Assembly: GCA_016934535.1 (NCBI GenBank)
Contig: JAFGSQ010000016.1
Location: 70,685 to 134,684, forward strand
Direction of reading: 5' to 3'
Origin: a candidate division WOR-3 bacterium
GTDB taxonomy: Bacteria; SDB-A
DNA length: 64,000 nucleotides
Shown here: one piece after another, positions 7,317 to 42,425 of the stretch
Layout: every line of letters starts with the position of its first letter
Position numbering within the stretch: the stretch's first letter is position 1
Translations under genes and position numbers: made by a program
Notes under the pieces: model-generated
The model's database searches: none
What the model saw: the letters and a program-made list of their open reading frames with translations, nothing else
What the model was told of the DNA's origin: nothing

Positions 7317-7362
7317 GATTCCTCCTTTTATAAACTATAAACTAAAAATTCGAATATGAAAT

Positions 7363-7818
7363 TTACCATATTTTGTTGAAAGAATCCATACATCCGAAAT
7401 ATTTTTCGTAATCAGGCCCTACGATAATAGTGACGTCGTGCATGCAGTTTTTCTTTATCTCGACGAGAGGAGGAGATATCGAGGAAGCCCGGCAAAGGAT
7501 TTTAGCGTTTCTGCCGGTTGAATCTTTTCTATCGACGACGAATGATCTGTCGAGTTCGGGTTCATACCAATTGTCAATCCTGATTACGTCGAATATGAAT
7601 AAAGTTTCGTTGAACAACACTCTTGTGGATTTTAGTGTGTCAGCGACGTATCTGCCGAGAGCGTCTTTTCCTGTTCCGTTAAGTATTTCAACCAGCACCG
7701 TGTCCTGCGGATACTGAGAATAATCTGCGTACGGATTTTCAGTTTGCAACCTGATTTTCGGAGGTTTGCTGCAGGACAGCAAAAGGATTAAAACAACTAT
7801 CGGTAAATTTTTTTTCAC
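7363..7818 (-). CDS. lipoprotein, possibly with a LytR_C-like domain
   Basis: It has a lipobox (LLSCS). The VLVEILNGTGKDALG...V pattern resembles the LytR C-terminal domain. Confidence 0.45.
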   Translation of the reverse strand: MKKNLPIVVLILLLSCSKPPKIRLQTENPYADYSQYPQDTVLVEILNGTGKDALGRYVADTLKSTRVLFNETLFIFDVIRIDNWYEPELDRSFVVDRKDSTGRNAKILCRASSISPPLVEIKKNCMHDVTIIVGPDYEKYFGCMDSFNKIW

Positions 7819-12392: not shown

Positions 12393-13955
12393 ATGTTTAT
12401 TCTCGGATCTGAACAAATAAAAGAGGCAGACAGAAAGGCGATCGAAGAGACGGGAATTCACCCTCTCGCGATGATGGAAAATGCCGGAAGAGCCGTGGCT
12501 GTCGCGGCAATAAATAATTGGAATTTACATGACTGCGATGAAGTCTTAATTCTAGCAGGAAAAGGGAACAACGGCGGTGACGCCTTGGTTTGCGCAAGGT
12601 TTTTAACCAATTTTGGGATCAAAACAAATGTTTTTTGTGTTTTCGATCCTTCTCTATTCTCAAAAGATGCGGAAATTCAGTACGGGATACTCAAAAGAAT
12701 CGGAATAACCTTGAATGAACTCTCTGTGTCAAATTTTAAAGAAAAATTTGAAGACAGTCTTTTTAACTCGCACCTTGTGATAGACGGAATTTTCGGGACG
12801 GGATTCAAAGGTCCGGTCACGGGTTTGCCTTCGGTTATCATTGATTCGGTCAACAAAGCTAAAAAGCCGGTACTTTCAATCGACATACCAAGCGGAGTCA
12901 ATTCTGACGACGGTTCTGTGAAAGGGACAGCCGTGAGAGCCAGTATCACAGTTACTTTCGCCTGCCCGAAAAAAGGACACTTCTCTATATCAGGAAAAGA
13001 ACATTCCGGAAGAATAATAGTCGCCGATATAGGATTACCAGGATCAATCGTCGAACAGCTTCACGATTCAGAACTCCTGACAACTGACTACGTCAGAAAA
13101 GTCATACCGGCCAGAAATGACACATGGCACAAGGGACAGTTCGGTAAAATACTCGTTGTCGGCGGGTCTGCATGCATGCCGGGAGCCCCTTTCCTCGCGG
13201 GCAAAGCGGCCTTCAAGACCGGAGCAGGTTTCGTCACTCTCGCCGTGCCGTCTGATATAATCGGCAATCCGTTCGGTTTTGAAGAGGCGACTTACTTCTG
13301 CGCGAACGACGGACCGTATCTGACCATGAAAGGTGCGAAAAGAATAATCGAACTGTCGGAGAATTACGACGCGGCCGTAATTGGTCCCGGCCTCGGCAGG
13401 GAAAAAGAAACCGCTTCAGCCGCCGCGGAAATACTGCTCGAATCAAAAATTCCGGCTGTCGTCGACGCTGACGCCCTGCATGCTGTTGTCCCTTTTCTGA
13501 AGAATGTCTCCGGGAGAAAACACACTGTGCTGACACCGCATTTAGGTGAATTCAGCGCTTTGACAGGACTCCCTACTGAAGAAATTAATAAGGATCCGGC
13601 CGGCCAAGTTCTGCGTTTTGCAGAAAAATACTCACTTACAATTCATTTGAAAGGTCCTCTCGGGAGAGTGACTTGCGGCAGTACATTGATGACCGCTGTG
13701 AATCCGGTGATGGAAAGCGCTCTCGCCACAGCTGGAAGCGGCGACGTTCTTTCGGGCATAATCGCCGCTCTCCTTGGAAAAACTTTTGACGCTTTCAAAA
13801 GCACCGGAGCAGGAGTTTTTATACACGCAGTATCCGGGATTATTGCGAGAGAAAAGTTTTATGCCGTTACTGCTTCCGACATTTACCGAAGTATTCCGGA
13901 CGCGATAAAAGCCGTCATAGAAAACAGAGACTTCGGATTTATAGATACAATTTAA
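12393..13955 (+). CDS. nnr: bifunctional NAD(P)H-hydrate epimerase / ADP-dependent dehydratase
   Basis: It has a YjeF-N domain (LAGKGNNGGDALV) and a YjeF-C carbohydrate-kinase domain (GSGDVLSG). Confidence 0.85.
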   Translation: MFILGSEQIKEADRKAIEETGIHPLAMMENAGRAVAVAAINNWNLHDCDEVLILAGKGNNGGDALVCARFLTNFGIKTNVFCVFDPSLFSKDAEIQYGILKRIGITLNELSVSNFKEKFEDSLFNSHLVIDGIFGTGFKGPVTGLPSVIIDSVNKAKKPVLSIDIPSGVNSDDGSVKGTAVRASITVTFACPKKGHFSISGKEHSGRIIVADIGLPGSIVEQLHDSELLTTDYVRKVIPARNDTWHKGQFGKILVVGGSACMPGAPFLAGKAAFKTGAGFVTLAVPSDIIGNPFGFEEATYFCANDGPYLTMKGAKRIIELSENYDAAVIGPGLGREKETASAAAEILLESKIPAVVDADALHAVVPFLKNVSGRKHTVLTPHLGEFSALTGLPTEEINKDPAGQVLRFAEKYSLTIHLKGPLGRVTCGSTLMTAVNPVMESALATAGSGDVLSGIIAALLGKTFDAFKSTGAGVFIHAVSGIIAREKFYAVTASDIYRSIPDAIKAVIENRDFGFIDTI

Positions 13956-15943
13956 TGAATTTTAGCAAAAACAGAAAATATTATTTCGTTTCAGCGTTTT
14001 TAGCCCTGGCGATACTGATCTTTTTTTCTTTTTTTTCAAAATCACTGCTTATAAAATCTGTCGACAAAATCCTTCGATCACGCGGAGTCGAAGCCTCACG
14101 GATCGCATTCCGGTTCCCTCTATTTTTTACTCTCAAAGACGTGAAATTTACAGAGGCAAACAGATTTGAAGGCGGATACGCGGAAGAAATTTCTTTCGCG
14201 CTTTCCCTACCGGATCCGGGAAAGATAAAGTTTTTATCTGTCGAAGATTTCCGAATTCCGTTTGCCAGCCGGATGAAAACAGGTGAAAGCGGAGATATTT
14301 CAGTTTCCGGCAGAAATATTCCTGACGAAATAAGACTGAAAAACGGGATCATAGAATTTTCAGGGCGTGAAATTATTGTGGATTCTTTTTCAGTGAAAAC
14401 GCAAGAAGATTCTCTCACGGGATATTTCAGTTCTTCTGGATCATTTTGCACTATTAACCTGCGTGATTCATCCGGAGTCTATCTTTTGTCAGCGCGGTCC
14501 AAAGACACTATAAAAATCTCTGAATACATGAACTTAAGCGGCTTCTCACTGAAAGCTGAAATTACAAGCGGTTCAATAAAAGGAAGCGTAAGAGGGAACT
14601 TTTCGACTTCGTTTTTCGGCGGGATCGAAACAACCTTAGAAGATAAAATCGAGATTGATTTTTCAGCTTCCCCCGCTGTCTTCTCACTTCCCAACAGAGG
14701 TGTTCGTGTCTCGACCAGTGAAGACTGTCTGATGATATCAGCCGACAGTTTCTTTTCACCGATCAAACCTCACGAAAAATTCGAGATAATATCATACAGC
14801 GTTTCCGGAAATTTGAGATTTTGCATAAAAGAAGGATTGTTCCTCGTAGATGCCGACTCTCTGAAAGTTTCAAACCTTCGGGTTCATTCACGTTTCATCT
14901 GCCGGGACACAGTGACTTTCAGCAGTTTGAACATACCATTGGCGCGGCTGTCGATTTCCTTTGATGACAGTTTAGTCGAAATTGACACTTTTGTCTTCGC
15001 TTTAGACAATTCTGATGTTTCGATCAACGGTTTTGTTGATTATTCCGACTCAGTGAGACTCCGGATTTCTTTCTGCGGAGAAAAAATCTCAGTCGAGGAC
15101 ATCATCAACTTTGTACCTGATGAACTTCTTCCGAATCTTTCCGGAATAAGCGGAAGAGGAGATTTCGATGTCTCGGGATATTTTTATTACGTTTCCTGCT
15201 TTCCAGAAAGCACAGATTTCGGCATCGGTTCTGTTTTCCGTGGAGTGTCAATAGATCACTTCGGACCGAAAATAGACATGGACACTTTTTCAAGACCTTT
15301 CGTCGCCACCGTCAGGATCGGTTCTTCGAAAGGTGAAAAGATAGCTCTCGGTATTCACAACCCGAATTTTGTGCCCATTGAAAATTTGCCCCAGTCTCTC
15401 ATCGGCGCCGTACTGGTTTGCGAAGACGGATCGTTTTTCAGCCACAGGGGATTCAGTCTTTTCCATATAAGAAGAGCCATGAGAGAAAACCTCAGCGCCG
15501 GCAGATACATAAGCGGCGGAAGCACTATAACGATGCAGTTGGCCAGAAATCTATTCCTGTCGGACGAAAGAAGCCTTTCAAGAAAACTCGAAGAAGCGGT
15601 GCTCACCTGGCAGTTGGAAAAACACCTCTCAAAGAAAAGAATACTTGAAATTTATCTGAATATTATCGAATTCGGTCCCGGAATCAGAGGAGTACAGGAG
15701 GCGTCAAAAGAATATTTCGGAACTGACGCCTCAAATCTTGATCCTCTTCAATCAGCGTATTTCGCCAGTATTATACCAAACCCCAGAAGATATTATCAGA
15801 TTCAATTCGAAAGAGGCTCCATCTCGCCGTACTGGCACCAGAAACTTGTCAGAATTATGGAACTGGAACTGGCAAGAAATTACATCGATTCAACCGCTTT
15901 CGACAGTTTCTCCGCAATTGATTTGGAATTCATTGATCGATAA
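13955..15943 (+). CDS. membrane protein with a large N-terminal beta-rich domain fused to a C-terminal GT51 peptidoglycan transglycosylase (MtgA-like) domain
   Basis: The C-terminal 200 aa carries the GT51 motifs EDGSFFSHRG, GGSTITMQLARN and RKLEEAVLTWQLEKHLSKKRILEIYLN. It has an N-terminal TM helix followed by a roughly 420-aa repetitive region of unknown function. Confidence 0.75.
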   Translation: MNFSKNRKYYFVSAFLALAILIFFSFFSKSLLIKSVDKILRSRGVEASRIAFRFPLFFTLKDVKFTEANRFEGGYAEEISFALSLPDPGKIKFLSVEDFRIPFASRMKTGESGDISVSGRNIPDEIRLKNGIIEFSGREIIVDSFSVKTQEDSLTGYFSSSGSFCTINLRDSSGVYLLSARSKDTIKISEYMNLSGFSLKAEITSGSIKGSVRGNFSTSFFGGIETTLEDKIEIDFSASPAVFSLPNRGVRVSTSEDCLMISADSFFSPIKPHEKFEIISYSVSGNLRFCIKEGLFLVDADSLKVSNLRVHSRFICRDTVTFSSLNIPLARLSISFDDSLVEIDTFVFALDNSDVSINGFVDYSDSVRLRISFCGEKISVEDIINFVPDELLPNLSGISGRGDFDVSGYFYYVSCFPESTDFGIGSVFRGVSIDHFGPKIDMDTFSRPFVATVRIGSSKGEKIALGIHNPNFVPIENLPQSLIGAVLVCEDGSFFSHRGFSLFHIRRAMRENLSAGRYISGGSTITMQLARNLFLSDERSLSRKLEEAVLTWQLEKHLSKKRILEIYLNIIEFGPGIRGVQEASKEYFGTDASNLDPLQSAYFASIIPNPRRYYQIQFERGSISPYWHQKLVRIMELELARNYIDSTAFDSFSAIDLEFIDR

Positions 15944-17103: not shown

Positions 17104-18492
17104 TTGATTTACTCTCATCCATGGGATAAAATGCTCATTATGCTTAACCATCTTCTTGTGTTCTTTTTTCTCACTTCTGCCGTTAATTCGTCGAAAATTG
17201 ACGGCTTTATAAGATCTTTGGGACCAGTACATTCAGGTATTCATTGCGTCAACACTAAAACGGGTGAATCAGTTTATTCTTACAACCAGGATTTCCTGTT
17301 CGTGCCGGCTTCGGTTCAGAAACTTCTGACGGTAGCGGGATCGTTTTTCATACTCGGCACCGATTACAGATTTTCGACCTATCTCCTCTGCGATTCTATC
17401 AGATCCGACACCGTTTACAATCTCGTTTTAAGAGGATCGGGAGATCCTTCGTTAGATTTAAAATCCATAGAACTCCTCGTCAAACACCTGAAATCCATTG
17501 ACATTAATAATATTCAAGGAGATATTTGCACGTATTCACGCGATCTCGACACACTTCCTCTCGGCGTCGGCTGGATGTGGGACGAAGGTTATTACGCTTA
17601 CAGTGCGAGAATTTCGGCTTTGAGCTGCTGTGGGAATTACGTTACTGTCAAAGCTGCCGTGACTGATGGAAGGATAACTTATGACATAATGCCGAAATCT
17701 GACTTCGTCGAATTGGTAAATCTTCTCGCTCCGGGAACCGAAAACAAATACACCGTCGAAAGATACTTCGACGGAGAAATTAACATCATTGTACTCTCCG
17801 GTACTCTCAAAACCCCTATCGAGAGAACAGTGAATTTGGAAAGGCCGGACCTTTTCACGGGACACCTATTTATGAGAGCCGCAATCGAAAGCGGGATATC
17901 CTTCCAAGGAATGGTACGATCCATACAGACCCTGCCTGCAGTTTATGAAACGGCTGCTGTTTTTGTATCCCCGCCTCTTTTCGCCCTGTCAGACAGCATA
18001 TTGAATTACAGTCTCAATCTCTCGTCAGAACTATTGTTGAGAAAGATTGCCTCTCTGAACTCTTTGGGAGCGTCTTCTCTCGAAGGCATATCCCTCATTT
18101 TCCAGAAATTCAGTTATTTAGGCCTCTCAACGTCAGGTATTGTGTCAAAAGACGGTTGTGGTCTGTCGAGATACAATCTTCTTTCACCAAGATTCCTGAC
18201 TTCTCTTCTCTCTCTGATGTTAAAACAACCCGGTACGTCTAATCTTTTTTTCAATTGCCTTCCGATAATGGGCAGGGAGGGCACCGTGAACAACAGACTT
18301 CGCAGAATTTCTGAAGACAGAGCGAGAGCAAAAACTGGAACTTTGTCAGGCATATCAACTATAGCCGGCTACATTGTAACGAAAAGGCAGGACACTCTTT
18401 CTTTCGCTATTATGATGAATAATTTTTCTATATCCCAAAACCAGATAAAAAATGTTCAGGACAGTATTATCCTCGAACTGATGAACTACTGA
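17104..18492 (+). CDS. dacB: D-alanyl-D-alanine carboxypeptidase/endopeptidase, PBP4 (peptidase S13) family
   Basis: It has the SVQK (SxxK) and KTGT motifs and S13-like organisation throughout. Confidence 0.8.
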   Translation: MIYSHPWDKMLIMLNHLLVFFFLTSAVNSSKIDGFIRSLGPVHSGIHCVNTKTGESVYSYNQDFLFVPASVQKLLTVAGSFFILGTDYRFSTYLLCDSIRSDTVYNLVLRGSGDPSLDLKSIELLVKHLKSIDINNIQGDICTYSRDLDTLPLGVGWMWDEGYYAYSARISALSCCGNYVTVKAAVTDGRITYDIMPKSDFVELVNLLAPGTENKYTVERYFDGEINIIVLSGTLKTPIERTVNLERPDLFTGHLFMRAAIESGISFQGMVRSIQTLPAVYETAAVFVSPPLFALSDSILNYSLNLSSELLLRKIASLNSLGASSLEGISLIFQKFSYLGLSTSGIVSKDGCGLSRYNLLSPRFLTSLLSLMLKQPGTSNLFFNCLPIMGREGTVNNRLRRISEDRARAKTGTLSGISTIAGYIVTKRQDTLSFAIMMNNFSISQNQIKNVQDSIILELMNY

Positions 18493-18493
18493 A

Positions 18494-19669
18494 ATGAACT
18501 CACTGGTGCTTTTCGAGAAAGACAGAGACAATTTTTACCCCCTTTCCCTTTCAAGGCACGTATCGGATCTAATTACAGGTTATTTTACTTTTTCGGAGGG
18601 TTTCAGACGCCTGTACGATTTGTGCGAAATCACTTTATTATCTCCCGCTTACATGGAAGAACACCTCAGAGAATCTCATCCCGCTTTCCGAATTAACGAA
18701 GAACAGCAGTATTCCCTATATCTTCGCGCCTCTATTTTGCCCGAAAAAAAAATTAAAAAACAAATATCGTTGGACGGACCCGAAGAAGCCTTCACCTGCG
18801 AAGGAAGTGTTATCGGATTCAGAGGATCCCCTGACACTGCAAAAATGTTTTTTAAGGAAGGCTTGACCCCCAAAAACATGCCTGTCAGGGAAGTTGAAGC
18901 GCAGGTTTTCAATAGCGTGTGTGATATCGTCGAAGGCAATGCTTTGTCGCTTGAAAGAAATTTTACACGCGGAGCTCTGAACGGCGAGATAGCAGGAACG
19001 GCTAAACTCATATCGCCCGAAAAGATATTTGTCGGCGCAAATTCGACAGTTGAAGATTATGTTCTTATCGACGCGAGGAAAGGTCCCGTTCACATAAGCG
19101 AAGGAGTAGAAATTAAATCCCACAGCGTTGTGGCCGGTCCGGTTTACATAGGACATGGTACTCTTGTAAAACCATTCACTCACATACTCAACGGATGCAG
19201 TTTCGGTCCTCAGTGCAGACTGAGCGGAGAAATATCAAAATCGCTGTTTATCGGATACTCAAACAAACAGCACTCCGGTTTTTTGGGCAATTCATACGTT
19301 GGAGAGTGGGTCAATTTCGGAGCCGGAACGACAAACTCAAACCTCAAGAATAACTATTCCGAGATCACCGTGCATTATAAAGGTGAATTTCACCGGACAG
19401 GAATGACTTTTTTGGGCCTGCTCTGCGGAGACCACGTCAAAACAGCCATTGGCACTCTCTTCAACACAGGAACGACTGTAGGCTTGGGCGCCAACATCTT
19501 CAAACCAGGTTTGACGGATAAATGTATTCCATCTTTAAGCTGGGGACCCGGAGAAAAGTATTCATTTGACAAATTCCTGAAAACAGCTGAAACCGTCATG
19601 TCGAGGAGAGAAAGAAAATTGACGGATTCATACGGAGAAATGCTCGAACACATATTCATAAATTCATGA
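18494..19669 (+). CDS. hexapeptide-repeat (left-handed beta-helix) protein with a degenerate N-terminal nucleotidyltransferase-like domain; GlmU-like, possibly acetyltransferase
   Basis: The C-terminal third has hexapeptide repeats (GEWVNFGAGTTNSN...GLGANI). The N-terminus is a diverged sugar-nucleotidyltransferase fold lacking the GxGxR motif. It is translationally coupled to the PAP2 gene (ATGA). Confidence 0.6.
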   Translation: MNSLVLFEKDRDNFYPLSLSRHVSDLITGYFTFSEGFRRLYDLCEITLLSPAYMEEHLRESHPAFRINEEQQYSLYLRASILPEKKIKKQISLDGPEEAFTCEGSVIGFRGSPDTAKMFFKEGLTPKNMPVREVEAQVFNSVCDIVEGNALSLERNFTRGALNGEIAGTAKLISPEKIFVGANSTVEDYVLIDARKGPVHISEGVEIKSHSVVAGPVYIGHGTLVKPFTHILNGCSFGPQCRLSGEISKSLFIGYSNKQHSGFLGNSYVGEWVNFGAGTTNSNLKNNYSEITVHYKGEFHRTGMTFLGLLCGDHVKTAIGTLFNTGTTVGLGANIFKPGLTDKCIPSLSWGPGEKYSFDKFLKTAETVMSRRERKLTDSYGEMLEHIFINS

Positions 19670-20202
19670 AAATCCTTCTCCTGTCTTTTTTTTTTCTTTT
19701 TTGTTTTAACAGTTTGTGTTCATTCGACCCTGACCGTCGGGTAACCGAAACCGTAAGAAACAAACTCTCTTCTCCCTTGTCTCAAAATTTAATGGAATAT
19801 ACTACAAAACTCGGGGACGGCAGGACAGTTCTTCTAACTTCCACAGTCATGTCTTTTGGTGATGAAAAAATGAGAAGGTGCGGCGAGCTTTCGATGGCAT
19901 CTTTCGCCGTTTCCGGAATACTTACCGTCGGCATAAAATACGCTGTGAACAGACAAAGACCCAACGGCGGCACCAGCTCTTTCCCATCGGGTCATACTTC
20001 CACCGCTTTTTCCTGGGCCGCGGTTGTTTCCAGCGAATATCCTCAATACAGTATTCCGGTTTTCGCAGTCGCCGGATTAGTTGGTGTTTCGAGAATAGCT
20101 TTGGATAAGCACTGGACTTCCGATGTAATCGCAGGAGCAGTCATAGGATATTTTTCGGGTTTGTTTATCGAAAAGATTTCCTGCTGGATAACGGATTATT
20201 GA
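19666..20202 (+). CDS. PAP2-family phosphatase (membrane)
   Basis: It has the three PAP2 motifs: KYAVNRQRP, PSGHTS and SRIALDKHWTSD. Confidence 0.8.
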   Translation: MKILLLSFFFLFCFNSLCSFDPDRRVTETVRNKLSSPLSQNLMEYTTKLGDGRTVLLTSTVMSFGDEKMRRCGELSMASFAVSGILTVGIKYAVNRQRPNGGTSSFPSGHTSTAFSWAAVVSSEYPQYSIPVFAVAGLVGVSRIALDKHWTSDVIAGAVIGYFSGLFIEKISCWITDY

Positions 20203-21041
20203 AAAACCTCGCATATAAAAAATTCCTGCCTTATTTAATTGTAACAAGGCCGTTAAACCTTGTCATAATCGCCGCAGCAGTTTATTTGGGATTTGCAGTC
20301 ACTTCTAACGCTTTTGTGCCTTCTGTCCGCCAAACAATTTTATTCGTGCCAATTATCCTTCTAGCCGCCGCGGGATACTGCATCAACGATGTTCTTGACA
20401 TGAAAGAAGACAAAATCAACAAACCTGATCGAGTTCTCGTCAGAAAAGCCGTGTCTAAAAAGACTTGCACTATTTACGCCCTGGTACTTACAGCTTTTTC
20501 TGTTGCTATTTCTCTTCATGATATGACTCTTGCTGTCGTAAACACCACTTTGATAGTCTTCGTTCTAGCGTACAATTTTTTTCTTAAAAAAACACCCCTC
20601 GCAGGAAACTTTACGACGGCAATTCTTTCATCTTTCCCCGTAATTTGGGGAAGTTATATTGGAGGTACTGTAAATCTCGACATTATATATATCGCTGTCC
20701 TCGCCTTTATCCTTCACTTTACCCGTGAAATAGTAAAGGACATTGAAGATATCAAAGGAGACTCACTCGCAGGTAAAAACACAACGGCGGTCTTTTTCGG
20801 AGCAAAAATATCGGTTTTGCTCGCTTCTTTTCTGATTTTATTATCCTGTGTAATGGCGATTTTTGTTTTTACATATCTTTTTAGAATATCTGTCTGCTCA
20901 ACTTTTTCTTCCGCAATTGTTACTTTATCATTGATGTTCAGTTTGTTTGCTTTGTTGAGGGCAAAATTTCCGATTGCTTCAAAATCCATCAGAATCTCAA
21001 TGATTCTGTGTGTCTTCTGTCTGTTTTTCCTCTACTTATAA
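20199..21041 (+). CDS. UbiA-family integral membrane prenyltransferase (TTG start overlapping the PAP2 stop)
   Basis: It has the NDVLDMKEDKINKPDR Asp-rich motif (NDxxDxxxD) and a second D-rich motif (KDIEDIKGD). It is about 280 aa with 8-9 TM segments. Confidence 0.8.
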   Translation: MKNLAYKKFLPYLIVTRPLNLVIIAAAVYLGFAVTSNAFVPSVRQTILFVPIILLAAAGYCINDVLDMKEDKINKPDRVLVRKAVSKKTCTIYALVLTAFSVAISLHDMTLAVVNTTLIVFVLAYNFFLKKTPLAGNFTTAILSSFPVIWGSYIGGTVNLDIIYIAVLAFILHFTREIVKDIEDIKGDSLAGKNTTAVFFGAKISVLLASFLILLSCVMAIFVFTYLFRISVCSTFSSAIVTLSLMFSLFALLRAKFPIASKSIRISMILCVFCLFFLYL

Positions 21042-21088: not shown

Positions 21089-22699
21089 TTACAAACCGAA
21101 CCAAACAAGCACTGCGTCGTAAATAGAAGCGATAGGTTCGTAATTAACCGCATCCCACTGCATGACTCTTCCTCCAAAACTAAAGGAAACAGATTTTATA
21201 TCCATCGACGGATTAGAATGAAAAACTCCAATCGGAGTTTCAGTCCATGGAACAGGTCCTATCCATTTGTAGATAACTGTAATATTTGGATCGGAAGTTC
21301 TTAGGTTTTCAACATAAGCTAATGCTGGATATACAGGTGGAATGTTATGAGTCATTTCAACATATAAAGTGTCCTGAGGAAGTCCGTATGTCGAAGCATA
21401 ACTGCTTGGAGCTGCTCCATCGAGTACCCAGTTTCCTGAACAATTCGTATAATATTCAACTCCCAGATATTTTTTTACAATAGTACCGCCAATACCGAAA
21501 GTATCAAGCTGATTAAAGAAATTCAAACCAAATGTCCACAACCTTCCACCGCAGTTAAGATAATCTTCAAGCGCCAGAGTATCTCTCGAAAAACCTGAAA
21601 TAAATGTACTCGGATCGTCGCGTACATAAATAACAAGCTTGGCGTTTTTGAGACTGTCTTTGGGTAAGACTCCACTATTTCTGTTAATGAATCTCACAGT
21701 TGTGTTGGGTCTTATTGTGTTGAAAAGGTCCACGTACCAGTTAAGATTATTATAAGTTTGGGTTGTTGCCATCAAAACGAGTATTTCTCCAGCATCAAGA
21801 TTCGGATTTATTGTTCTGAACGCTAAAGAATCTACGTTGCTTTGGACATGGGATGCATTTCTGCCCTGTAAATAAAAAACGTGCAATCCATCATTCAGGT
21901 TCTGGGTCACTGTAATAAACGAATCACCTGCTGTGTTCGGATTCATATCGGTCCATTCTGACCAGATGTCATTATCAATTTTATATCTATACCCGATAGG
22001 CATGTTCCATTCTGGATTGAGCGTATCAATTCTACTCCACCAGAACTGCAGGCCTTTCCATGACGGTGTGCTGTGATCAAGATAAAACATTACCGGTGTG
22101 TCTGTTTTGAACCAAAAATATGGCCTTGTTTCATCGTAATATTTTAGCAGACCAGAGTTTAAATCGTTTGCCATAGTGTCCGGTGGTACAATTTCTATCA
22201 CCGGTTTTTCACTATAAACACTCCATCCTCTTTGAGCTGGCATCGGATCTCTCATACCTTCGTCGTCGACAGCTCTGACGTAAAAATATCCCCTAAAATG
22301 CCATATCTCTCGGACATCGTAAAATGTGTCCGGTACTATTATTACCGTGTCAACAATTGTGTCGAGTACAATTAGCGAATCCGGGACATCGTCGACCGTA
22401 AGTTTCATCGTGTCGCTCGAAGCGAAAATCGAGTCCCAGCCTGTAATTTGGGAAGGATTGACTGAATCTCCTGACACAAACCATTCGTAATAAGCAACAA
22501 CTCCGTCTTCGTCTGTACCGTACCAATAAACCAGAGAAACAGCATTTATAGTGTCTATTCCGGGCGGTACATTGACGATGTAAGTTTCGGGCGGTTTGTT
22601 CTGATTAAGAGATCCAGTTGGGGCTGTGCTGCAACCCAACCAGAGTCCGGCGGCCAAAGCGGCCAGGACGAATAAAGTAGCAATAGTTGTTTTTCTCAT
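21089..22699 (-). CDS. large hypothetical lipoprotein (third gene of the three-lipoprotein operon)
   Basis: It has a lipobox (LWLGCS), is 536 aa and is rich in W/Y/N/D. I recognise no family. Confidence 0.55.
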   Translation of the reverse strand: MRKTTIATLFVLAALAAGLWLGCSTAPTGSLNQNKPPETYIVNVPPGIDTINAVSLVYWYGTDEDGVVAYYEWFVSGDSVNPSQITGWDSIFASSDTMKLTVDDVPDSLIVLDTIVDTVIIVPDTFYDVREIWHFRGYFYVRAVDDEGMRDPMPAQRGWSVYSEKPVIEIVPPDTMANDLNSGLLKYYDETRPYFWFKTDTPVMFYLDHSTPSWKGLQFWWSRIDTLNPEWNMPIGYRYKIDNDIWSEWTDMNPNTAGDSFITVTQNLNDGLHVFYLQGRNASHVQSNVDSLAFRTINPNLDAGEILVLMATTQTYNNLNWYVDLFNTIRPNTTVRFINRNSGVLPKDSLKNAKLVIYVRDDPSTFISGFSRDTLALEDYLNCGGRLWTFGLNFFNQLDTFGIGGTIVKKYLGVEYYTNCSGNWVLDGAAPSSYASTYGLPQDTLYVEMTHNIPPVYPALAYVENLRTSDPNITVIYKWIGPVPWTETPIGVFHSNPSMDIKSVSFSFGGRVMQWDAVNYEPIASIYDAVLVWFGL

Positions 22700-22714
22700 T
22701 TTCCCCCTCCTCGA

Positions 22715-23719
22715 TTACGGAGCCGCAAAATAATAAATCGAAGTGTGAAGAGCTATTCCGATAGCGGCCTGATACTGCGTTGACACATCGATGTATCCTC
22801 TTCTGCCCGACGGAGTGTGTCTTTGGAACCTTATTTCATAAACGTTGTTCTGTGCTCCTCTTATTTCGTCCATGATTCCCCAGACGCTCCCCATTGAAAG
22901 CTGATACTGATAATAGGCATCGGTGCCGAGAGACAACTGTTCGATGTTAGCCGTGTCGGGATTGTCACTGAACTTCAGAAAATATATCGGAACTCCTGCG
23001 GCGTTCGCGGCGTTTATCACAGCCTGTCTGTCTAATGGATCCTCATTATTAACACCGTCACCAAAAACTACTATACCTTTGTTTCCGCTCTGCCCCTGAA
23101 TCTCAGTTATCGCTCTATTTACGCCCCTGAACATTGCACTTCTCCCCCAATAGCTCGGGAAATCGGCTCCGGCTTCAAGAATCGTTATCGATTTCGTGAA
23201 ATCGGTTATGAGTGTGTCATAACTGTGGAATCCGATGATTGCTATGGAATCTCTGGGATCTTTCCAGTTTATGAAACGTTTGATGTATGTTGTTATGGTT
23301 GCATCGTAGGAGGCGACTGACGAAGACATGCTTCTCACAAGAACAATTGAATTGTAATCGTTTCCGCCAGTAGTGTTCAGCGTCCTCATAGTCATATCAT
23401 TGAAGAGAACGGCGTTAGTGTCTATGCTGCCGTCAGGTCTGTAAGACATTTCACGGACAGTGAAATTCGCTTTGTTGAGATTTTCGACGGATATATTTTC
23501 CTGCGTCTTAACGCTCACTCTCACTATTACGTCACCGCCCGAAAACTCGATGCCGAGAATCGAAGTTGTAATGCCTGTAGTCGAGCTGTCGTCTCTGTTT
23601 ATATAAGGAGGAATTGTTGGCGGTTGATCGATAACGCTTTTCGAGCAACCGGCGAAAACAGTCAAAAGCGAAATCAGAAACGTCAGAGATGTAAAAATTG
23701 TTCTGCCATTTATTTTCAT
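22715..23719 (-). CDS. lipoprotein with a vWA-like domain (degenerate MIDAS)
   Basis: It has a lipobox (FAGCS). The vWA-like alternation of strand and helix motifs is present (IVLVRSMSSS, IAIIGF, IVVFGDGVNN, VPIYFLKF), but the DxSxS Asp is replaced by Arg. Confidence 0.45.
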   Translation of the reverse strand: MKINGRTIFTSLTFLISLLTVFAGCSKSVIDQPPTIPPYINRDDSSTTGITTSILGIEFSGGDVIVRVSVKTQENISVENLNKANFTVREMSYRPDGSIDTNAVLFNDMTMRTLNTTGGNDYNSIVLVRSMSSSVASYDATITTYIKRFINWKDPRDSIAIIGFHSYDTLITDFTKSITILEAGADFPSYWGRSAMFRGVNRAITEIQGQSGNKGIVVFGDGVNNEDPLDRQAVINAANAAGVPIYFLKFSDNPDTANIEQLSLGTDAYYQYQLSMGSVWGIMDEIRGAQNNVYEIRFQRHTPSGRRGYIDVSTQYQAAIGIALHTSIYYFAAP

Positions 23720-23732
23720 CTGGTCCTCCGTA

Positions 23733-24677
23733 TTAATACACGTATCTGAGTTTGGGAACGGGTTGATAGTTCCAGCGGAAATAAATCACGGCTGAATCCA
23801 AATCACTTGCCGGAGGAGACATATATATGCTGTCTACGCTGATCTTCAGATACCGTTGCATCGTGCTCTGCAACCAAACAATGTCTCCCATGACGATAGG
23901 AGTTGTATACAAATACTGGTCTCCTATCGGAGCTATCCTAAGCTCAGCCCAGCTGGAATCAGAACCGACATTATAAATACCTGCTTGTTTTCCTCCGGAA
24001 AACGGCGGATTGAATGCGGAATTTATCTGAAGGAATGCGAGGGCTGTATCGGTTACAATAGTTGTATCGTAAACCCATAAAGTGTCAATGAATGTAGAGT
24101 CTATTATGAAAACGGTAGTGTCTATTCTGTCCAACGAGTCGCACGGATCGTACAGGTACACTTCGGCAATTGAGTGTAGCTGGGAATTTCCGAAACCGAT
24201 GACTTCAAATGTATTTTCATCCCATATCGCGGCAAAATTTCCGTTGAGTCCGTATGCGACCATGTGGGAAGAACCGGATTTTGTAGTTGTGCTGACCCTG
24301 CCGACTGTATCTGCGGACCAGACATTCCCGCTGCTCTCTCTCGAAAAAAGGACAGTATACGTACCAAGCTGTTGTGCGTCGTTGAGCGTCCAGCTGTTGA
24401 AATAAGTTGTGTCGCCGCTGACGACTTCGTATGCCGGGAATACAGTGTCTATAGTGTTCCCGAAAATTACTCTGTATCTTCTCGCCTGGGTTATTATGTC
24501 CCATGTGAATTTGACGCCTAGACCGTCGGTAGTAGTGCCCTGAGCGGCAAAATGGTAATCAATCACTATGGTGCCTTCGTGTCGCTTCCCTTCGTCCAAA
24601 GGAATAGTCGAACATCCCACGAATATGAACATCACCAGGAAAACGGCAGATAGTATAAACCCCGTTTTTCTAACCAT
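23733..24677 (-). CDS. hypothetical lipoprotein (first gene of the three-lipoprotein operon)
   Basis: It has a lipobox (FVGCS). I recognise no family. Confidence 0.5.
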   Translation of the reverse strand: MVRKTGFILSAVFLVMFIFVGCSTIPLDEGKRHEGTIVIDYHFAAQGTTTDGLGVKFTWDIITQARRYRVIFGNTIDTVFPAYEVVSGDTTYFNSWTLNDAQQLGTYTVLFSRESSGNVWSADTVGRVSTTTKSGSSHMVAYGLNGNFAAIWDENTFEVIGFGNSQLHSIAEVYLYDPCDSLDRIDTTVFIIDSTFIDTLWVYDTTIVTDTALAFLQINSAFNPPFSGGKQAGIYNVGSDSSWAELRIAPIGDQYLYTTPIVMGDIVWLQSTMQRYLKISVDSIYMSPPASDLDSAVIYFRWNYQPVPKLRYVY

Positions 24678-24856
24678 CAGCTTCCCTCCTTCCTGAAAGG
24701 CATACTATATGTTTTGAAACTCAAAATCATTTAATTAGTAAAATTATCAGCTGGTTCAACCAAAGTCAACATAAATTTGACCTTTAAAATGACAGTCTAA
24801 TCAATATTTATGAAATCTTTGTTGTTGGTTGATATTTACCGTGATAAAACATACGC

Positions 24857-25603
24857 ATGAAAATCAGCCTCGTCATACCCGTGTTCAATGAAACATCCAT
24901 CCTGAGAAGGACTCACCGTTCCGTGAAAGCCTTTTTAGATGATTTCGGACCCGGAGAAGCGGAAGGTATTTACGTCGACGACGGCAGTTCCGACGGATCA
25001 TTCGAAGTGCTCGAAAAACTTTGCCTGGGCTCTTCTCAGGTGTTCAAGCTGGTTCGGCATCATGTTAATTGCGGCCAGCACTGCGCCGTTCTCACGGGCA
25101 TGAGACGTTCCACCGGAGACCTTGTTCTCACTGCCGATGCAGACCTTCAGACTCCTCTTTGGAATTTTCAAACCCTATTGAATGCCATGGAAAGCGGAGA
25201 TTCCGTAATCTCGGGAATTAGAATAGACAGGACAGATCCGCTTCCTAGGAAAATCATTTCATTTTTTCTAAACGCTCAGCTTTCTTTCCTGTTCAGAAAC
25301 CGCATAAAAGACATCGGCTCGATGTTCAAGTGCTACCGGAAAAATGCCGTCCAAGATATTTTGAAAAATTCAAACAAAAACACTTTTGTGCCGGCTCTTG
25401 CTATGAAACTTGGATACACGATTAAAGAAGTTCCTGTCCGGCAGGAATCTCCCGTGAGAAAATCGCGATACGATTTGGCGAGACTGTCCAGGCTCTATCT
25501 CAGACTCGCTGTCGAAGTAGGATTACCGTGTCATTTGCTGATTTTTGCTTTTTCAGTTTTTATTATAATCTTTTTTGCGGAATTGGTTATCATGCTATTT
25601 TAA
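24857..25603 (+). CDS. GT2 polyprenyl-phosphate glycosyltransferase (GtrB/ArnC/Dpm1-like)
   Basis: It has the motifs VIPVFNE, DDGSSDGS and DADLQTP that are diagnostic of polyprenol-P sugar synthases, plus a C-terminal TM anchor. Confidence 0.8.
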   Translation: MKISLVIPVFNETSILRRTHRSVKAFLDDFGPGEAEGIYVDDGSSDGSFEVLEKLCLGSSQVFKLVRHHVNCGQHCAVLTGMRRSTGDLVLTADADLQTPLWNFQTLLNAMESGDSVISGIRIDRTDPLPRKIISFFLNAQLSFLFRNRIKDIGSMFKCYRKNAVQDILKNSNKNTFVPALAMKLGYTIKEVPVRQESPVRKSRYDLARLSRLYLRLAVEVGLPCHLLIFAFSVFIIIFFAELVIMLF

Positions 25604-25695
25604 AGAATTCTTAATATATATTGTTATGATTTTGGTCCGGTATACTATATGTCCTTTAATAATCAGTTCAATTAAATCGAAACTCAGGGGGCGGC

Positions 25696-27540
25696 GTGCG
25701 ATTTGATAAAAAATACGGATTTTTGCTTTCGTTTCTTTTTTTTATGTTGCTGAACGCGACTTTTTACCTGGCCACTGTAGCTCCGGGTCTGACGTTCATT
25801 GATTCCGGAGAACTTACCGCCTGCGGAGCGCTTTACGGCATTCCTCACCCGACGGGATATCCGCTATATTCGCTTTTTGTCAGAATTTTCATCTCTTTGA
25901 CTTCCGTTTTCAAAGTTGAAGCGGATATTGCTTCAAATCTGTTTTCGGTCCTCTGCGCCTGCCTGGCGGGCGCAGTTTTGTCTTCATCCCTGCATAGAAA
26001 AACCGGTTTTATTCCGGCCCTGATTTTAGACATTCTCCTTTGCTTTCATCCGATCGTGTGGTCGGCGGCTACAGAAACTGAGGTTTACGCTCTTACTCTC
26101 CTTCTTTCATCAACGCTTCTCGCCGTATTTTTGAACACTCCGAAAAAGAAATACTATCTTTCTTTCTCTTTACTTCTATCTTACATGTGCGGACTTTTTT
26201 TGGGAAATCATCTCATGATAGCCGGATTTGTATTACCTCTGCTCTTTTATTCAGCCCTGAGGCTCCAGAGAAAAAAAAGATTTTTCGCCTTTTTCGCCAT
26301 TGTCGCCGCTGCAGCAGGCGCCAGCATATATTTGACAATCTACTACAGGTCTATGTGCCCACCGCCCCTGGATTGGGGCGGGACTTCGCGAGGATTCACC
26401 CAGCTTTTTTATCACGTGACCGGAAAGCAATATCAGGTCTGGATGTTTTCAAAGGGTGCCCTCGGTTTCTTGTCCGCTCTTTCAAATCTTCTTAAATTTA
26501 TTTTCATAAATCCGTTCGCGCCTCTTTATCTTCTCGCAGTCCCCGGGATCATGCACCTTTACAGAAAAAACAGGCCTTTACTGTTCATTCTGCTGGCGTG
26601 CTTCGGTCTCAACCTTGCCTACGCTTCCTCATACAGCATACCGGACATATCAAGCTATATGATTCCTTCAGTAACGGTCATAGCGGTTCTCTGTGCTTTC
26701 GGATCATTTTGGCTTTTTTCAAAAAAATCCGCTCGGTTTTTTATCGCGGTGGTTTTGATCCTCGCCGTTTTTCCGATGTACAACGGATTCAGAAAAGAAG
26801 ACAAAACAGGTCTTTTTCTCGCCGAGGACTACGCTCTTTCCATACTCTCTTTTCTTCCGGAATCGTCGGTTTATCTCGTAAACTCCCCCGGGGCTCTCGC
26901 CTGGGAGGAAGTATCTCCGATCATATACTTTCAAAGCATTAAAATGCACAGAACAGACGTCACGGTAATCGACAAAGAACTTTTGCGGAGGTCGTGGTAT
27001 GTGATTTGGATAAACTCTGAAAATCCTGATCTTGCGGAATCATGGCCGAATGAGTACAACAGTTTCCTGCTTCTTCTGACCGCCTGGGAGAAAGGAGACG
27101 AAGTGGACACAGGCTCTCTTCAGAATGCTTTTGAAAATTTGATTTTTGCCCTTTACAGATACGGAAAAAGCCGTGGCGGATTTTTCATTTCCAATCCGCC
27201 TTCCGGAAAGTTCACGGCACATCCCGATCATGACCTGAGAAAATTATCCGAAGTCTCGTTTTTGCCTTACGGTTTTTTCTTCACGGACGACAGCTCGGCA
27301 GATGACTCGCATATTTGGAAATCACTGACCTTGAGGCCTGTTCCCGGAAATTTGTCCCGTAACGAAAGAGTCCTCATGATAACGGGAAACATCAAACAAT
27401 CCGCCTGGAGAAAGGTTTACAGAATCAATATGGAAAGCGGAGGGAAGTTCACTGAGAAGTCACTTCCCTACATCGAATTCATTATCAAGCTTGATCCGGA
27501 GGATACTCTGGCGTCTGGAATCATGAATCGGTTTTACTGA
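25696..27540 (+). CDS. DUF2723 / TMEM260-like polytopic membrane protein (GT-C fold, putative polyprenyl-P-sugar-dependent glycosyltransferase)
   Basis: The N-terminus (FIDSGELTACGALYGIPHPTGYPLYSL) is characteristic of DUF2723. It has about 11 TM helices followed by a soluble C-terminal domain of about 200 aa. Confidence 0.7.
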   Translation: MRFDKKYGFLLSFLFFMLLNATFYLATVAPGLTFIDSGELTACGALYGIPHPTGYPLYSLFVRIFISLTSVFKVEADIASNLFSVLCACLAGAVLSSSLHRKTGFIPALILDILLCFHPIVWSAATETEVYALTLLLSSTLLAVFLNTPKKKYYLSFSLLLSYMCGLFLGNHLMIAGFVLPLLFYSALRLQRKKRFFAFFAIVAAAAGASIYLTIYYRSMCPPPLDWGGTSRGFTQLFYHVTGKQYQVWMFSKGALGFLSALSNLLKFIFINPFAPLYLLAVPGIMHLYRKNRPLLFILLACFGLNLAYASSYSIPDISSYMIPSVTVIAVLCAFGSFWLFSKKSARFFIAVVLILAVFPMYNGFRKEDKTGLFLAEDYALSILSFLPESSVYLVNSPGALAWEEVSPIIYFQSIKMHRTDVTVIDKELLRRSWYVIWINSENPDLAESWPNEYNSFLLLLTAWEKGDEVDTGSLQNAFENLIFALYRYGKSRGGFFISNPPSGKFTAHPDHDLRKLSEVSFLPYGFFFTDDSSADDSHIWKSLTLRPVPGNLSRNERVLMITGNIKQSAWRKVYRINMESGGKFTEKSLPYIEFIIKLDPEDTLASGIMNRFY

Positions 27541-27784: not shown

Positions 27785-27811
27785 TTTACCTCCTATTTAA
27801 AATTTTGAATA

Positions 27812-28540
27812 TTATAATTTAATTTCGTGTTTTGTCAAATTCATAAAATATTCTTTTTCCTTCCCGCTGAGAATCCTGTATTCTCCGGGTTTCATATTCC
27901 CCAACAGCACTGCGCCGTGACGCGTTCTGACAAGTCTTCGGACTGAAACCGAAAAAAAACCCAACATTTTTCTTATTTGCTTGTTGTATCCTGTCTTGAG
28001 AGTCAGTCTTATAATTCTTCCATCCGTTACGACTTTCTCAAACTTCATCAGCTTTCCTTCGATATCGATGCCTTCAACGCTTTTCACGATCTCTTCCCTG
28101 TTCAACTCTCTGTCAAGAGTAGCCTCGTATTCTTTATCGCAGCCGAACGACGGATGAGATGCTCTGTGAAGGAACTGACCGTCGTCACTGATTATCATCA
28201 GCCCTTCGCTCTCTGCGTCAAGCCTTCCCGCCCATTTCCATCCTATCCCGGAGGGGAGAAGGTTTATTACACTTTTTTTTCCGGGAGCGTGCGTGCAGAC
28301 GAATCCTATGGGTTTGCATAAAACGCCGTAGGAATATTTTTTATCAGGATCACCCGTGAGCTCTTTCCCGAAAACTTTTACTTTGTCGTGAGACAAAATG
28401 TTCTGCCCCAAAACGGCTTTTTTCCCGTTGACAAGTATTTTACCTTCCGAGATCAGAAAATCCGCTTTTCTTCTGCTCGCGACGAATCCCTCAATGACAA
28501 GAAAGCGGTTGAGCCTCAATTTATATTTCTCAGAATACAA
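27812..28540 (-). CDS. rRNA pseudouridine synthase (RsuA/RluB family)
   Basis: It has an N-terminal S4 domain and the catalytic motif GRLDAESEGLMIISDDG. Confidence 0.8.
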   Translation of the reverse strand: MYSEKYKLRLNRFLVIEGFVASRRKADFLISEGKILVNGKKAVLGQNILSHDKVKVFGKELTGDPDKKYSYGVLCKPIGFVCTHAPGKKSVINLLPSGIGWKWAGRLDAESEGLMIISDDGQFLHRASHPSFGCDKEYEATLDRELNREEIVKSVEGIDIEGKLMKFEKVVTDGRIIRLTLKTGYNKQIRKMLGFFSVSVRRLVRTRHGAVLLGNMKPGEYRILSGKEKEYFMNLTKHEIKL

Positions 28541-40655: not shown

Positions 40656-42425
40656 TCAGTAACGGTTGAATTTTCTGCTGAAAGTCGCCTGTCCTATCCT
40701 GGCGAGCACGAAATAACTTCCCGCCTGGATTCCCTCTCCAATATCCTCTGATAATAAGTGGTGTCCCTCCGAATACCTGCCTTCAGCGACGACATAGACG
40801 CTTCTTCCTGTGACGTCAAAAATCTTTACTGAAACGTCGGTCATCTCAGTGAGAGAGAATTCGACTCTCAACAATCCCTCCGAAAAGACGGACGCGAATT
40901 CCACCTGCGCCGGAACGACAGTGACAGGCATCTCTTCAACGGAATTAATTTCGTAAGACACGGTGTAGAATCCTTCCGGAGCCGTGTAGGGATCCCTTTC
41001 GGTCCTTCCGGAGGAGTCTGTCGCCTGGATAAAGTAATCAATAACAGCAGTGTCGTCGGCGACCGGTTGAGGCAAAATACACCAAAAACTGTCGGGAAAG
41101 CCGGTTACCCTCTCCATTGTCTCAAAATTTTCAAAAACGCTGTCTCCGTGGAACTTCCACGCGAAAAACACCTGATCGCTTATTACGCCTTCGCCGCTGT
41201 AATCATGGACGAGAGCGCGGATTCTCAGTTCGAAAGGATCTATACCGGGGTCGTGATCTACAAAAAGCATTCCGGGGTCGAAAATAGCCATAGTCCTGCA
41301 GTGGATGGCGTCTGTGGGTTCAAAACTGTAATCCGTATAACCTACTGCGTCGTAACCGGGCATCTCCCTCTCGTAAAAGTTGATCGCGGCAGTGTCGTAC
41401 AATGTATTGCCGGTCACCGGCACGTAGACTTTATTGTTGAGTATCAGGCTGTTGACGTAAGCGGCGTATATGCTATCAGGACAGTTGAGCCTGACGACCT
41501 CGTAATTTCTGCCGTAACAGTTTGTAAGAGTCGTAATGTAATTCGCGAGCTGATTGAGAGCGGCGTCGTCAACTCCGTTCCTTATGACGACAACTTTCTC
41601 TTCCGAAAGAAATTTAGCATAACAATCTATGTGATTTATGTAGCTTCCGAGCGGGTCGTTGAAAGTGTAATAGTTGGAAATTCCCCAGTAGGCGAGCATC
41701 AAAGCGTTGACCGAATCTACGGACAAAGACGGGTTGTCGTCTGAATATACGTTGTTGCTCGACATCGCTCTGCCGTGGCCGTCGCACATCATATTGCCGC
41801 CCGTGTGAGCGAGCATTGTTTTCCACAGTTTTATTCCGAGAGCCGGTGCGAGGTCCCAGTTGGACTCGTCGTCGTCTATCCTGCCGTGAGTGTATCTTCT
41901 GTTGTAGACGTGGTCTGAAATTCCCACTGAATCGTTTCCGTCGAAGACCGACCAGGGGCCGTAATCCCTCGTCCAGTAGCTGTTGGTTGGAGTCGAAACG
42001 AAAGTTACGTCGGAGAGAGAAATGCCGTGGCTCGTGAAAGCCGACTGGGCGGACGAGACGTTGTCCGTAAGACAGGTGACGTGGAGATCCTGAGCGAGAT
42101 CTGATATAAGATTCCACGGCAGTCCGACGGGATATCTTATGAGAACGGAAACCGCCGGTTCCCACTCGGCGCACATCCTGACGGGCGCGGCGGGAGGATC
42201 GGTCGGCACAACGGGATCTTTTCCCATGGAAGGATAATATTCAGGCAGAAGCGGTTTTAAAGGGCCTGGATCGTGAGGAGGATGATTGACAGACATTCCG
42301 TCGACGATTAGTTCGGCGAATTCTCCGGAAAACGGCCCTTCTTCATGTCCGGGTATCCAGGTATTCGCGGAAGTGAGTACAATTGTCAGAACGAATATTA
42401 AAAACATGTCACCTTCCTTTTTCAA
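40656..42425 (-). CDS. secreted agmatine deiminase / Porphyromonas-type peptidylarginine deiminase (PPAD) family enzyme with a T9SS-type C-terminal sorting domain
   Basis: It has a signal peptide and the guanidino-modifying motifs WTRDYGP, GGN..DG.G, HID and IHC (catalytic Cys). The last 75 aa or so (VSVKIFDVTGRSV...GSYFVLARIGQATFSRKF) match the Por secretion tail pattern. Confidence 0.65.
   Translation of the reverse strand: MKKEGDMFLIFVLTIVLTSANTWIPGHEEGPFSGEFAELIVDGMSVNHPPHDPGPLKPLLPEYYPSMGKDPVVPTDPPAAPVRMCAEWEPAVSVLIRYPVGLPWNLISDLAQDLHVTCLTDNVSSAQSAFTSHGISLSDVTFVSTPTNSYWTRDYGPWSVFDGNDSVGISDHVYNRRYTHGRIDDDESNWDLAPALGIKLWKTMLAHTGGNMMCDGHGRAMSSNNVYSDDNPSLSVDSVNALMLAYWGISNYYTFNDPLGSYINHIDCYAKFLSEEKVVVIRNGVDDAALNQLANYITTLTNCYGRNYEVVRLNCPDSIYAAYVNSLILNNKVYVPVTGNTLYDTAAINFYEREMPGYDAVGYTDYSFEPTDAIHCRTMAIFDPGMLFVDHDPGIDPFELRIRALVHDYSGEGVISDQVFFAWKFHGDSVFENFETMERVTGFPDSFWCILPQPVADDTAVIDYFIQATDSSGRTERDPYTAPEGFYTVSYEINSVEEMPVTVVPAQVEFASVFSEGLLRVEFSLTEMTDVSVKIFDVTGRSVYVVAEGRYSEGHHLLSEDIGEGIQAGSYFVLARIGQATFSRKFNRY

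Follow-up and report, generated by a model that had tools for sequence, protein, structure and literature searches.

A 64,000-nucleotide (nt) stretch of contig JAFGSQ010000016.1 from a candidate division WOR-3 bacterium (hereafter the window) carries, next to each other on the forward strand, a gene for a GT2 polyprenyl-phosphate glycosyltransferase of the ArnC/GtrB/DPMS type (24857..25603, 248 amino acids (aa), ATG start) and a gene for a GT117 (TMEM260-like, DUF2723) GT-C membrane glycosyltransferase (25696..27540, 614 aa, GTG start). That the pair is an operon serving periplasmic protein O-glycosylation, with the sequon-dense lipoproteins encoded beside it as likely substrates, is in our judgement an even call. 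The genes for the putative donor synthase, the transferase and the candidate substrates all lie inside 6.5 kb. An initial annotation, made from the nucleotide sequence alone, had proposed the pair as a glycosylation module; both open reading frames (ORFs) are present as it placed them, as are the DADLQTP and DDGSSDGS motifs that it quoted.

The spacer between the two genes (25604..25695, + strand) is 92 nt long, with AGGGGG upstream of the GTG, and this start codon is backed by homologues of the 614-aa protein that begin at the same position. The window holds a single ArnC-like GT2 and a single GT117 protein; an identical 614-aa protein is entered at NCBI as 'DUF2723 domain-containing protein [candidate division WOR-3 bacterium]'. 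The same order, with GT2 directly upstream of GT117, is found in four relatives, L001 and L002 (58% identity) and L082 and L083 (42-44%). We favour a coupling of the two genes because they share a strand, their spacer is terminator-free, the GT2 ORF overlaps the GT117 start by 14 nt in L082, and the pair persists in relatives at 42-58% identity. The closest relative locus, L002 (CAYNIW010000002.1), has an identical gene order and is labelled 'uncultured Desulfuromonadaceae bacterium'; identical and similar proteins are labelled WOR-3, and the bin was probably given the wrong taxonomic label.

On its upstream side the GT2 gene shares a divergent intergenic region (24678..24856) with the lipoprotein genes. 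This region holds an element, AAAGTCAA[CT]A.AAAT, which is kept in the alignment of the window, L001 and L082 and may be a regulatory site common to the lipoprotein gene and GT2. A promoter and terminator scan of the operon, with output at background level and uninformative for the WOR-3 phylum, called neither a terminator-like site in the 92-nt spacer nor a sigma-70-like site in 24678..24856. At its 3' end the GT117 gene overlaps the end of the convergent rpsT by 20 nt (27521..27540). A perfect TTGACA-16-TATAAT consensus stands upstream of rpsT, at 27811..27838.

Both the sequence and the predicted fold of GT2 support its assignment as a polyprenyl-phosphate glycosyltransferase. The protein matches PF00535 in Pfam (E 2.9e-21; 76.5 bits against a cut-off of 23.3) and carries VDDGSSDGS at residues 40-48 and DADLQTP at residues 94-100. 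The solved structures nearest to it by sequence are three ArnC entries (E ~1e-28, query 2-245 corresponding to ArnC 9-253), followed by Pyrococcus furiosus DPMS (5e-10) and Synechocystis GtrB (3e-6). The top NCBIfam models are ArnC, PgfS (second best, E 3.4e-26), the haloarchaeal dolichyl-phosphate hexose transferase and PpgS, all of them lipid-phosphate sugar synthases, and all scores are far under the equivalog cut-offs (112.6 against 529 bits for ArnC, NF007986). When the AF2 model (pLDDT 92.9) was searched with Foldseek, ranks 1-25 were exclusively ArnC, DPMS and GtrB, and soluble-acceptor GT2s appeared from rank 26. The type of enzyme named in the initial annotation, a polyprenyl-phosphate sugar synthase, is thus borne out, with no clustering with soluble-acceptor GT2s.

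The motif D94-A-D96-L-Q98-T99 (25136..25153, + strand) is the DXD metal/base motif of polyprenyl-phosphate (Pren-P) glycosyltransferases and aligns to ArnC 100-DADLQN-105. In the ArnC structure, D100-A-D102-L-Q104 is the metal/base motif and R128 and R137 are ligands of undecaprenyl phosphate; GtrB and PfDPMS carry the same DADLQ-type motif, the first Asp of which was suggested to serve as catalytic base (10.1101/2025.01.29.634835). R122 and R131 of GT2 align to R128 and R137 of ArnC. These arginines and the DADLQ residues are invariant among 33 homologues, and every family-invariant residue is present in the window protein.

The GT2 layout consists of a cytoplasmic GT-A domain, amphipathic juxtamembrane (JM) helices and a single predicted C-terminal membrane helix at ~217-248. 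The model places helices at 129-146, 207-220 and 223-247, and the ArnC alignment spans the JM helices and the first transmembrane helix (TM1). The short length is real, as five close homologues are 244-250 aa long, and an explanation by a pseudogene or an assembly artefact was rejected on that ground. For the L082 orthologue (6878..8014, 378 aa) no membrane helix is predicted, and it bears a soluble tail of ~150 aa; that of L083 (3..908) has two membrane helices and a tail, compared with one helix and no tail in the window.

The 614-aa protein was proposed to be a DUF2723 protein from the character of its N-terminus, and residues 36-186 indeed match PF11028 (TMEM260-like, formerly DUF2723; E 1.8e-15, 57.7 bits against 24.2). 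Its single solved relative is human TMEM260 (9rql; phmmer E 3.2e-11, query 21-438 corresponding to TMEM260 37-476), and a profile of 27 homologues aligned to TMEM260 residues 38-474 over 401 columns (hhalign probability 99.9, E 1.4e-34). The high-confidence predicted model has a GT-C fold with ~11 membrane helices, and ArnT is among its top fold matches. The TMEM260 homology and GT-C fold put forward in the initial annotation therefore stand, as does its statement that bacterial DUF2723 proteins lack a characterised member: our literature search found no bacterial DUF2723, GT117 or PF11028 study. The bacterial family comprises 23,692 representatives at 50% identity with E<=1e-3, and 9,473 with E<=1e-30, with full-length matches.

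In human TMEM260, D52 and H67 (sugar-recognition motif; both essential), R264 and Y267 (donor-loading loop), R355 (TMH10) and D441 (catalytic base, in a luminal Rossmann-like domain) matter for activity (PMC10214176; 10.64898/2026.03.17.711096). D52, H67 and Y267 correspond to GT117 D36, H51 and Y246, which are invariant in the 27 homologues and in 13 further homologues from Bacteroidota. D36 and H51 belong to the sugar-recognition motif of the first periplasmic loop (25798..25869, + strand; I35-D36-S-G-E39-L ... I49-P-H51-P-T-G-Y-P-L-Y58), where D36 provides the acidic residue anticipated for this loop; E39 is also invariant in the 27. About 50 columns are invariant in this set, including D36, E39, H51, Y246, D317 and DKELLRRSWY. 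We place the N-terminus in the cytoplasm and the active site, together with residues 368-614, in the periplasm, because every second loop gathers the Lys and Arg residues and the conserved polar positions are in the loops free of them.

The periplasmic domain (residues 368-614; 26797..27540, + strand) consists of a five-stranded alpha/beta part, as judged from the secondary structure of the model, and then three C-terminal helices at 557-613. It carries the W403-E404 position and the invariant motif I-D-K-E428-L-L-R431-R432-S-W-Y, in which R431 and R432 are specific to the bacterial proteins. By hhalign, E428 is the equivalent of TMEM260 E466, a residue that in the human ternary complex touches the position before the glycosylated Thr (-1), the homologous domain gripping an extended peptide (10.64898/2026.03.17.711096). 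A protein acceptor is favoured because TMEM260 grips its peptide with the homologous domain, because E428 matches E466, and because many GT117 homologues carry TPRs, with clear matches in P0010, for example.

Candidates for such an acceptor are encoded next to the pair. Three lipoprotein genes on the reverse strand (21089..24677) are divergent from the GT2-GT117 operon: a 314-aa protein (23733..24677, lipobox FVGC), a 334-aa protein (22715..23719) and a 536-aa protein (21089..22699, lipobox LGC). The first and the third matched no Pfam or PDB entry and no known family in searches of Pfam, NCBIfam and PDB sequences; the 334-aa protein has a weak VWA-like match (TIGR03436, E 8.3e-9, under cut-off). 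We counted the sequon D-[ST]-[AILVMT], as defined for O-glycosylation in Bacteroidota, and took the expectation from residue shuffles. The 314-aa protein contains 11 sequons against 1.8 expected (z 7.7) and the 536-aa protein 13 against 2.3 (z 7.6), a density 5-6 times expectation. In the 334-aa protein the sequon is not enriched in the window copy (3 against 1.6), and its L082 orthologue has 7 against 1.7. Six control motifs, with Glu or Asn for Asp, a non-hydrophobic residue in third place, the order reversed, the spacing shifted, or Ala or Gly for Ser/Thr, were at or near expectation in the 314-aa and 536-aa proteins, the largest z being 2.4 (D-[AG]-Phi, 536-aa protein).

The L001 and L082 orthologues of both sequon-dense lipoproteins are equally enriched. 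At ~50% identity, all three orthologues share 9 of 11 sequon columns for the 314-aa protein and 8 of 13 for the 536-aa protein, and within the kept columns Ser interchanges with Thr and one hydrophobic residue with another, a pattern that would be expected if the sequon itself were under selection. Pooled over the window, the ratio of observed to expected sequons is 2.56 for exported proteins, a class assigned by a crude signal-peptide heuristic throughout, and 1.12 for cytoplasmic proteins; exported proteins from 100 kb of E. coli K-12 give 0.94. Other exported window proteins that carry the sequon are encoded at 6807..7316, 7363..7818, 13955..15943 and 17104..18492, among others.

Beyond the window, the ratio for exported proteins is 1.97 in other WOR-3 loci, 2.21 in the Zixibacteria/TA06 group and 1.47 in the Ignavibacteria group. 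An abundance of about twice expectation is seen in the WOR-3 loci L005-L058 and in L003, L016, L024 and L033 (Zixibacteria/TA06/Edwardsbacteria). These counts hint at sequon-directed O-glycosylation outside Bacteroidota. In 77 distant GT117 loci the gene just downstream of GT117 gives 1.96, compared with 0.93 for position -1 and 0.81 for position +2, an enrichment that is suggestive only. The acceptor sequon of TMEM260 itself, P-x5-P-x3-G-P-x2-[GA]-G-G-x2-[ST], was absent in its full and relaxed forms from every ORF of the window.

What the analysis shows are folds, topology and gene order, together with the conservation of catalytic residues and the sequon counts; the activity, the sugar, its flipping, the acceptor and the coupling are inferred. 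By homology, GT2 would load polyprenyl phosphate with one sugar from a nucleotide-sugar donor at the cytoplasmic face, with D94 as the base, D96 and Q98 binding the metal, and R122 and R131 binding the lipid phosphate. The lipid-linked sugar would then be flipped to the periplasmic face. There, as can be proposed from human TMEM260, GT117 would bind it at the membrane-periplasm interface through D36, H51 and Y246, while the periplasmic domain would hold an extended stretch of an exported protein, and the sugar would pass to a Ser or Thr hydroxyl with inversion, the acidic residue at W403-E404 being the probable base. The sequon statistics make the D-S/T-hydrophobic sequons of the lipoproteins encoded at 23733..24677 and 21089..22699 the likeliest acceptors.

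Several observations weigh against this scheme, and some of them speak for other explanations. The same chemistry could serve a non-protein acceptor, as a single-sugar decoration of lipid A, the lipopolysaccharide core, peptidoglycan or another envelope glycan in the manner of ArnC/ArnT or GtrB/GtrC. ArnC is the closest characterised relative of GT2, ArnT is among the best fold matches of the GT-C protein, and, TPR-bearing homologues notwithstanding, no TPR family was found at E<=1 by Pfam in the window GT117 protein. Diderm envelope functions are represented by heptose pathway-like genes and penicillin-binding proteins in the window and by Tol-Pal/OmpA in a relative. The peptide-gripping domain, its E428 and the sequon density of the lipoproteins speak for protein, and we consider a non-protein acceptor unlikely, although it deserves to be kept in view. 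The link between the sequon and GT117 is itself statistical only. As for the flipping step, the genes that border the operon include no recognisable flippase of the GtrA or ArnE/F type, a screen that did not extend to the remainder of the window.

Alternatively, the two genes could be neighbours and not partners, GT2 feeding another transferase elsewhere and GT117 receiving its donor from an unlinked synthase, as must be the case in most lineages. Among 83 GT117 loci surveyed, an adjacent GT2 within 6 kb was found in none of the 79 more distant ones (27-34% identity; WOR-3, Zixibacteria, TA06, Edwardsbacteria, Ignavibacteria, Bacteroidota, Gemmatimonadota and others), searched with tblastn at E 1e-5 and an ArnC-like profile at E 1e-3. 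Four weak GT2 matches turned up in distant loci (L006, L025, L035, L069), none of them adjacent to GT117. When the Pfam families of 74 neighbours upstream and 66 downstream were tallied, no conserved partner gene for GT117 emerged, the commonest being GlnE (20), DUF1844 (8) and DUF4837 (8). The two-gene arrangement described in the initial annotation thus holds for the window and four loci of its clade, and fails in the 79 distant loci; because these lack both an adjacent GT2 and a conserved partner, the linkage is not a property of the family. The GlnE cases form a pattern of their own: in 20 of the 74 distant loci, these being from Bacteroidota and Ignavibacteria, GT117 follows glnE (glutamine synthetase adenylyltransferase) directly on its downstream side, often with a 4-nt overlap (L021, L026, L037, L039, L041, L045, L053, L063, L069, L073, L077 and L081 are among them).

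Even within the clade, the conservation of the pair is weak as independent evidence, because flanking housekeeping genes (rpsT, the pseudouridine synthase gene and scpB) are equally syntenic. The three lipoprotein genes and the UbiA gene, in L001 the PAP2 gene too, are likewise syntenic in the clade as far as the contigs extend. In addition, the GT2 C-terminus is different in every orthologue. On the other side, GT2 and GT117 share a strand with no terminator between them, they are the sole ArnC-like GT2 and the sole GT117 of 64 kb, and their ORFs overlap in L082. The convergent GT117/rpsT order also exists without GT2, in L007 (WOR-3) and L033 (TA06), so GT2 is a clade-specific addition next to GT117; the gene order suggests that GT2 and the lipoprotein genes joined an older GT117 position, GT2 being inserted precisely upstream of GT117. 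On balance we think it doubtful that the two are unconnected neighbours.

The remaining points against the proposed O-glycosylation operon concern the enzymes themselves. GT2 ends at residue 248, after the TM1 equivalent; the parts from which ArnC and GtrB build their tetramer, TM2 and the C-terminal beta-hairpin, are missing. In GT117, TMEM260 R264 and R355 have no conserved counterparts: G243 stands in the R264 column, next to K244 (K, R or W in homologues), and R355 aligns to the variable S320. The equivalent of D441 can be placed only within one column. It falls on W403 in hhalign, one position before the near-invariant acidic column E404 (D in most homologues), and on A400 in phmmer, within a 5-residue insertion specific to the clade of the window. 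Although the two missing arginines and the inexact base position would fit a catalytically inactive GT117 with a structural or chaperone-like role, the ~50 invariant columns with their catalytic residues, the high-confidence model and the 9,473 full-length representatives make this very improbable.

A further-reaching reading of the O-glycosylation proposal concerns Bacteroidota. According to a 2025 review, the transferase, flippase and ligase for the conserved core glycan of Bacteroidota O-glycosylation 'remain undiscovered', and the likeness of the pathway to O-mannosylation in eukaryotes is a reason to look for homologues of the latter (PMC12871550). Bacterial GT117 could be the long-sought transferase that adds the first sugar to the D-S/T-hydrophobic sequon from a polyprenyl-phosphate-monosaccharide donor, with R431 and R432 reading the sequon Asp and sequon glycosylation extending to WOR-3 and other members of the Fibrobacteres-Chlorobi-Bacteroidetes (FCB) group. 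We offer this as a speculation that will more probably prove wrong than right. On the same speculative footing, the window would be a rare case in which synthase, transferase and sequon-laden substrates stand side by side. Against it, our small Bacteroidota sample has no enrichment in exported proteins (1.02; 1.60 for membrane proteins), though glycosylation is known there. A search with a Bacteroidota-GT117 profile returned only metagenome-assembled genomes labelled 'Bacteroidota bacterium', which cannot settle the case for Bacteroides, Tannerella, Porphyromonas or Flavobacterium. In the literature, no paper was found joining TMEM260 and Bacteroid*.

Comparison with described systems places the locus among known ones. 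Human TMEM260 (CAZy GT117; PDB 9RQL/9RQM/9RQN) is an endoplasmic reticulum protein O-mannosyltransferase for IPT domains (PMC10214176; 10.64898/2026.03.17.711096). It is homologous to the window protein over ~400 residues, with the same order of parts: an 11-helix GT-C core, D52/H67 (D36/H51), a loop Tyr (Y246) and an alpha/beta luminal domain with a VD-x-E-hh-x-x-x-WY motif. The window protein differs in being bacterial, with a periplasmic active site, no TPR match and without conserved R264/R355, and it has the bacterial-specific invariant R431/R432 and an IPD motif (I315-P316-D317). The TMEM260 sequon GP..[GA]GG..[ST] is absent from the window, and the donor is presumably an undecaprenyl-phosphate (Und-P)-sugar, not dolichyl-phosphate mannose.

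With ArnC/ArnT, an Und-P-L-Ara4FN synthase and a GT-C lipid A transferase, the pair shares the logic of a lipid-sugar synthase and a GT-C enzyme, and by sequence and fold GT2 comes nearest to ArnC, DADLQ and the arginines included. However, GT2 is not an ArnC equivalog, having one membrane helix and no C-terminal beta-hairpin; its GT-C partner is GT117, not GT83; and ArnA/B/D/E/F-like genes are missing among the neighbours scanned. In GtrA/GtrB/GtrC systems, a GtrB-like GT2 similarly makes an Und-P-monosaccharide that a polytopic GT-C enzyme uses outside the membrane. CsbB/GtcA/YfhO and the PgfS/PgfM machinery for protein O-glycosylation in S. mutans are systems of this type. The window pair departs from them in having no GtrA-like gene next to it and a GT-C enzyme of the TMEM260 family, which is found in no such system described in the literature. 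Protein O-mannosylation by Dpm1/PMT in eukaryotes and Ppm1/Pmt in Actinobacteria employs GT39 in place of GT117; the window enzyme has no MIR domain, and the GT2 beside it resembles UDP-sugar enzymes (ArnC) more than DPMS. The general O-glycosylation of Bacteroidota (PMC12871550) has the same D-S/T-A/I/L/V/M/T sequon that is over-represented and positionally conserved in exported proteins here. The window organism, in contrast, belongs to WOR-3, and the current model for Bacteroidota is an en bloc transfer of a core disaccharide, not of a single sugar from Pren-P.

Two other parts of the window are worth recording. At 18494..21041 (+ strand), three genes, each overlapping the next by 4 nt, encode in turn a sugar nucleotidyltransferase-like protein (NTP_transf_4 and Hexapep), a PAP2 phosphatase and a UbiA prenyltransferase, an arrangement kept in L001. 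In NCBIfam the UbiA protein scores best with archaeal-type GGGP/DGGGP synthases (E 1e-40, under cut-off), and the three genes could belong to a polyprenyl-phosphate or an ether-lipid pathway. At 40656..42425 (- strand), a 589-aa protein with an N-terminal hydrophobic segment carries a Porphyromonas-type peptidyl-arginine deiminase domain (PF04371, E 1.7e-28).

The logic of the locus is already known from ArnC/ArnT, GtrB/GtrC, Dpm1/PMT and similar systems, so that in kind the system is not novel. Its new features are a GT-C partner of the TMEM260 family, none of whose bacterial members has been studied, a synthase that is a truncated single-helix variant, and a physical association of the pair with sequon-rich lipoproteins in a phylum without described sequon-directed O-glycosylation. 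TMEM260 was recognised as a human O-mannosyltransferase in 2023 (PMC10214176), with a structure preprint in 2026 (10.64898/2026.03.17.711096). Its bacterial relatives form a very large family that has no characterised member in the searchable literature, and the locus is a minimal, clonable system for finding the role of these GT117 enzymes. Should the sequon lead fail, the locus would be a plain variant of the ArnC/ArnT and GtrB/GtrC scheme. If the lead is true, bacterial GT117 would be a candidate for the undiscovered transferase of Bacteroidota O-glycosylation, and that pathway would be older and wider than one phylum.

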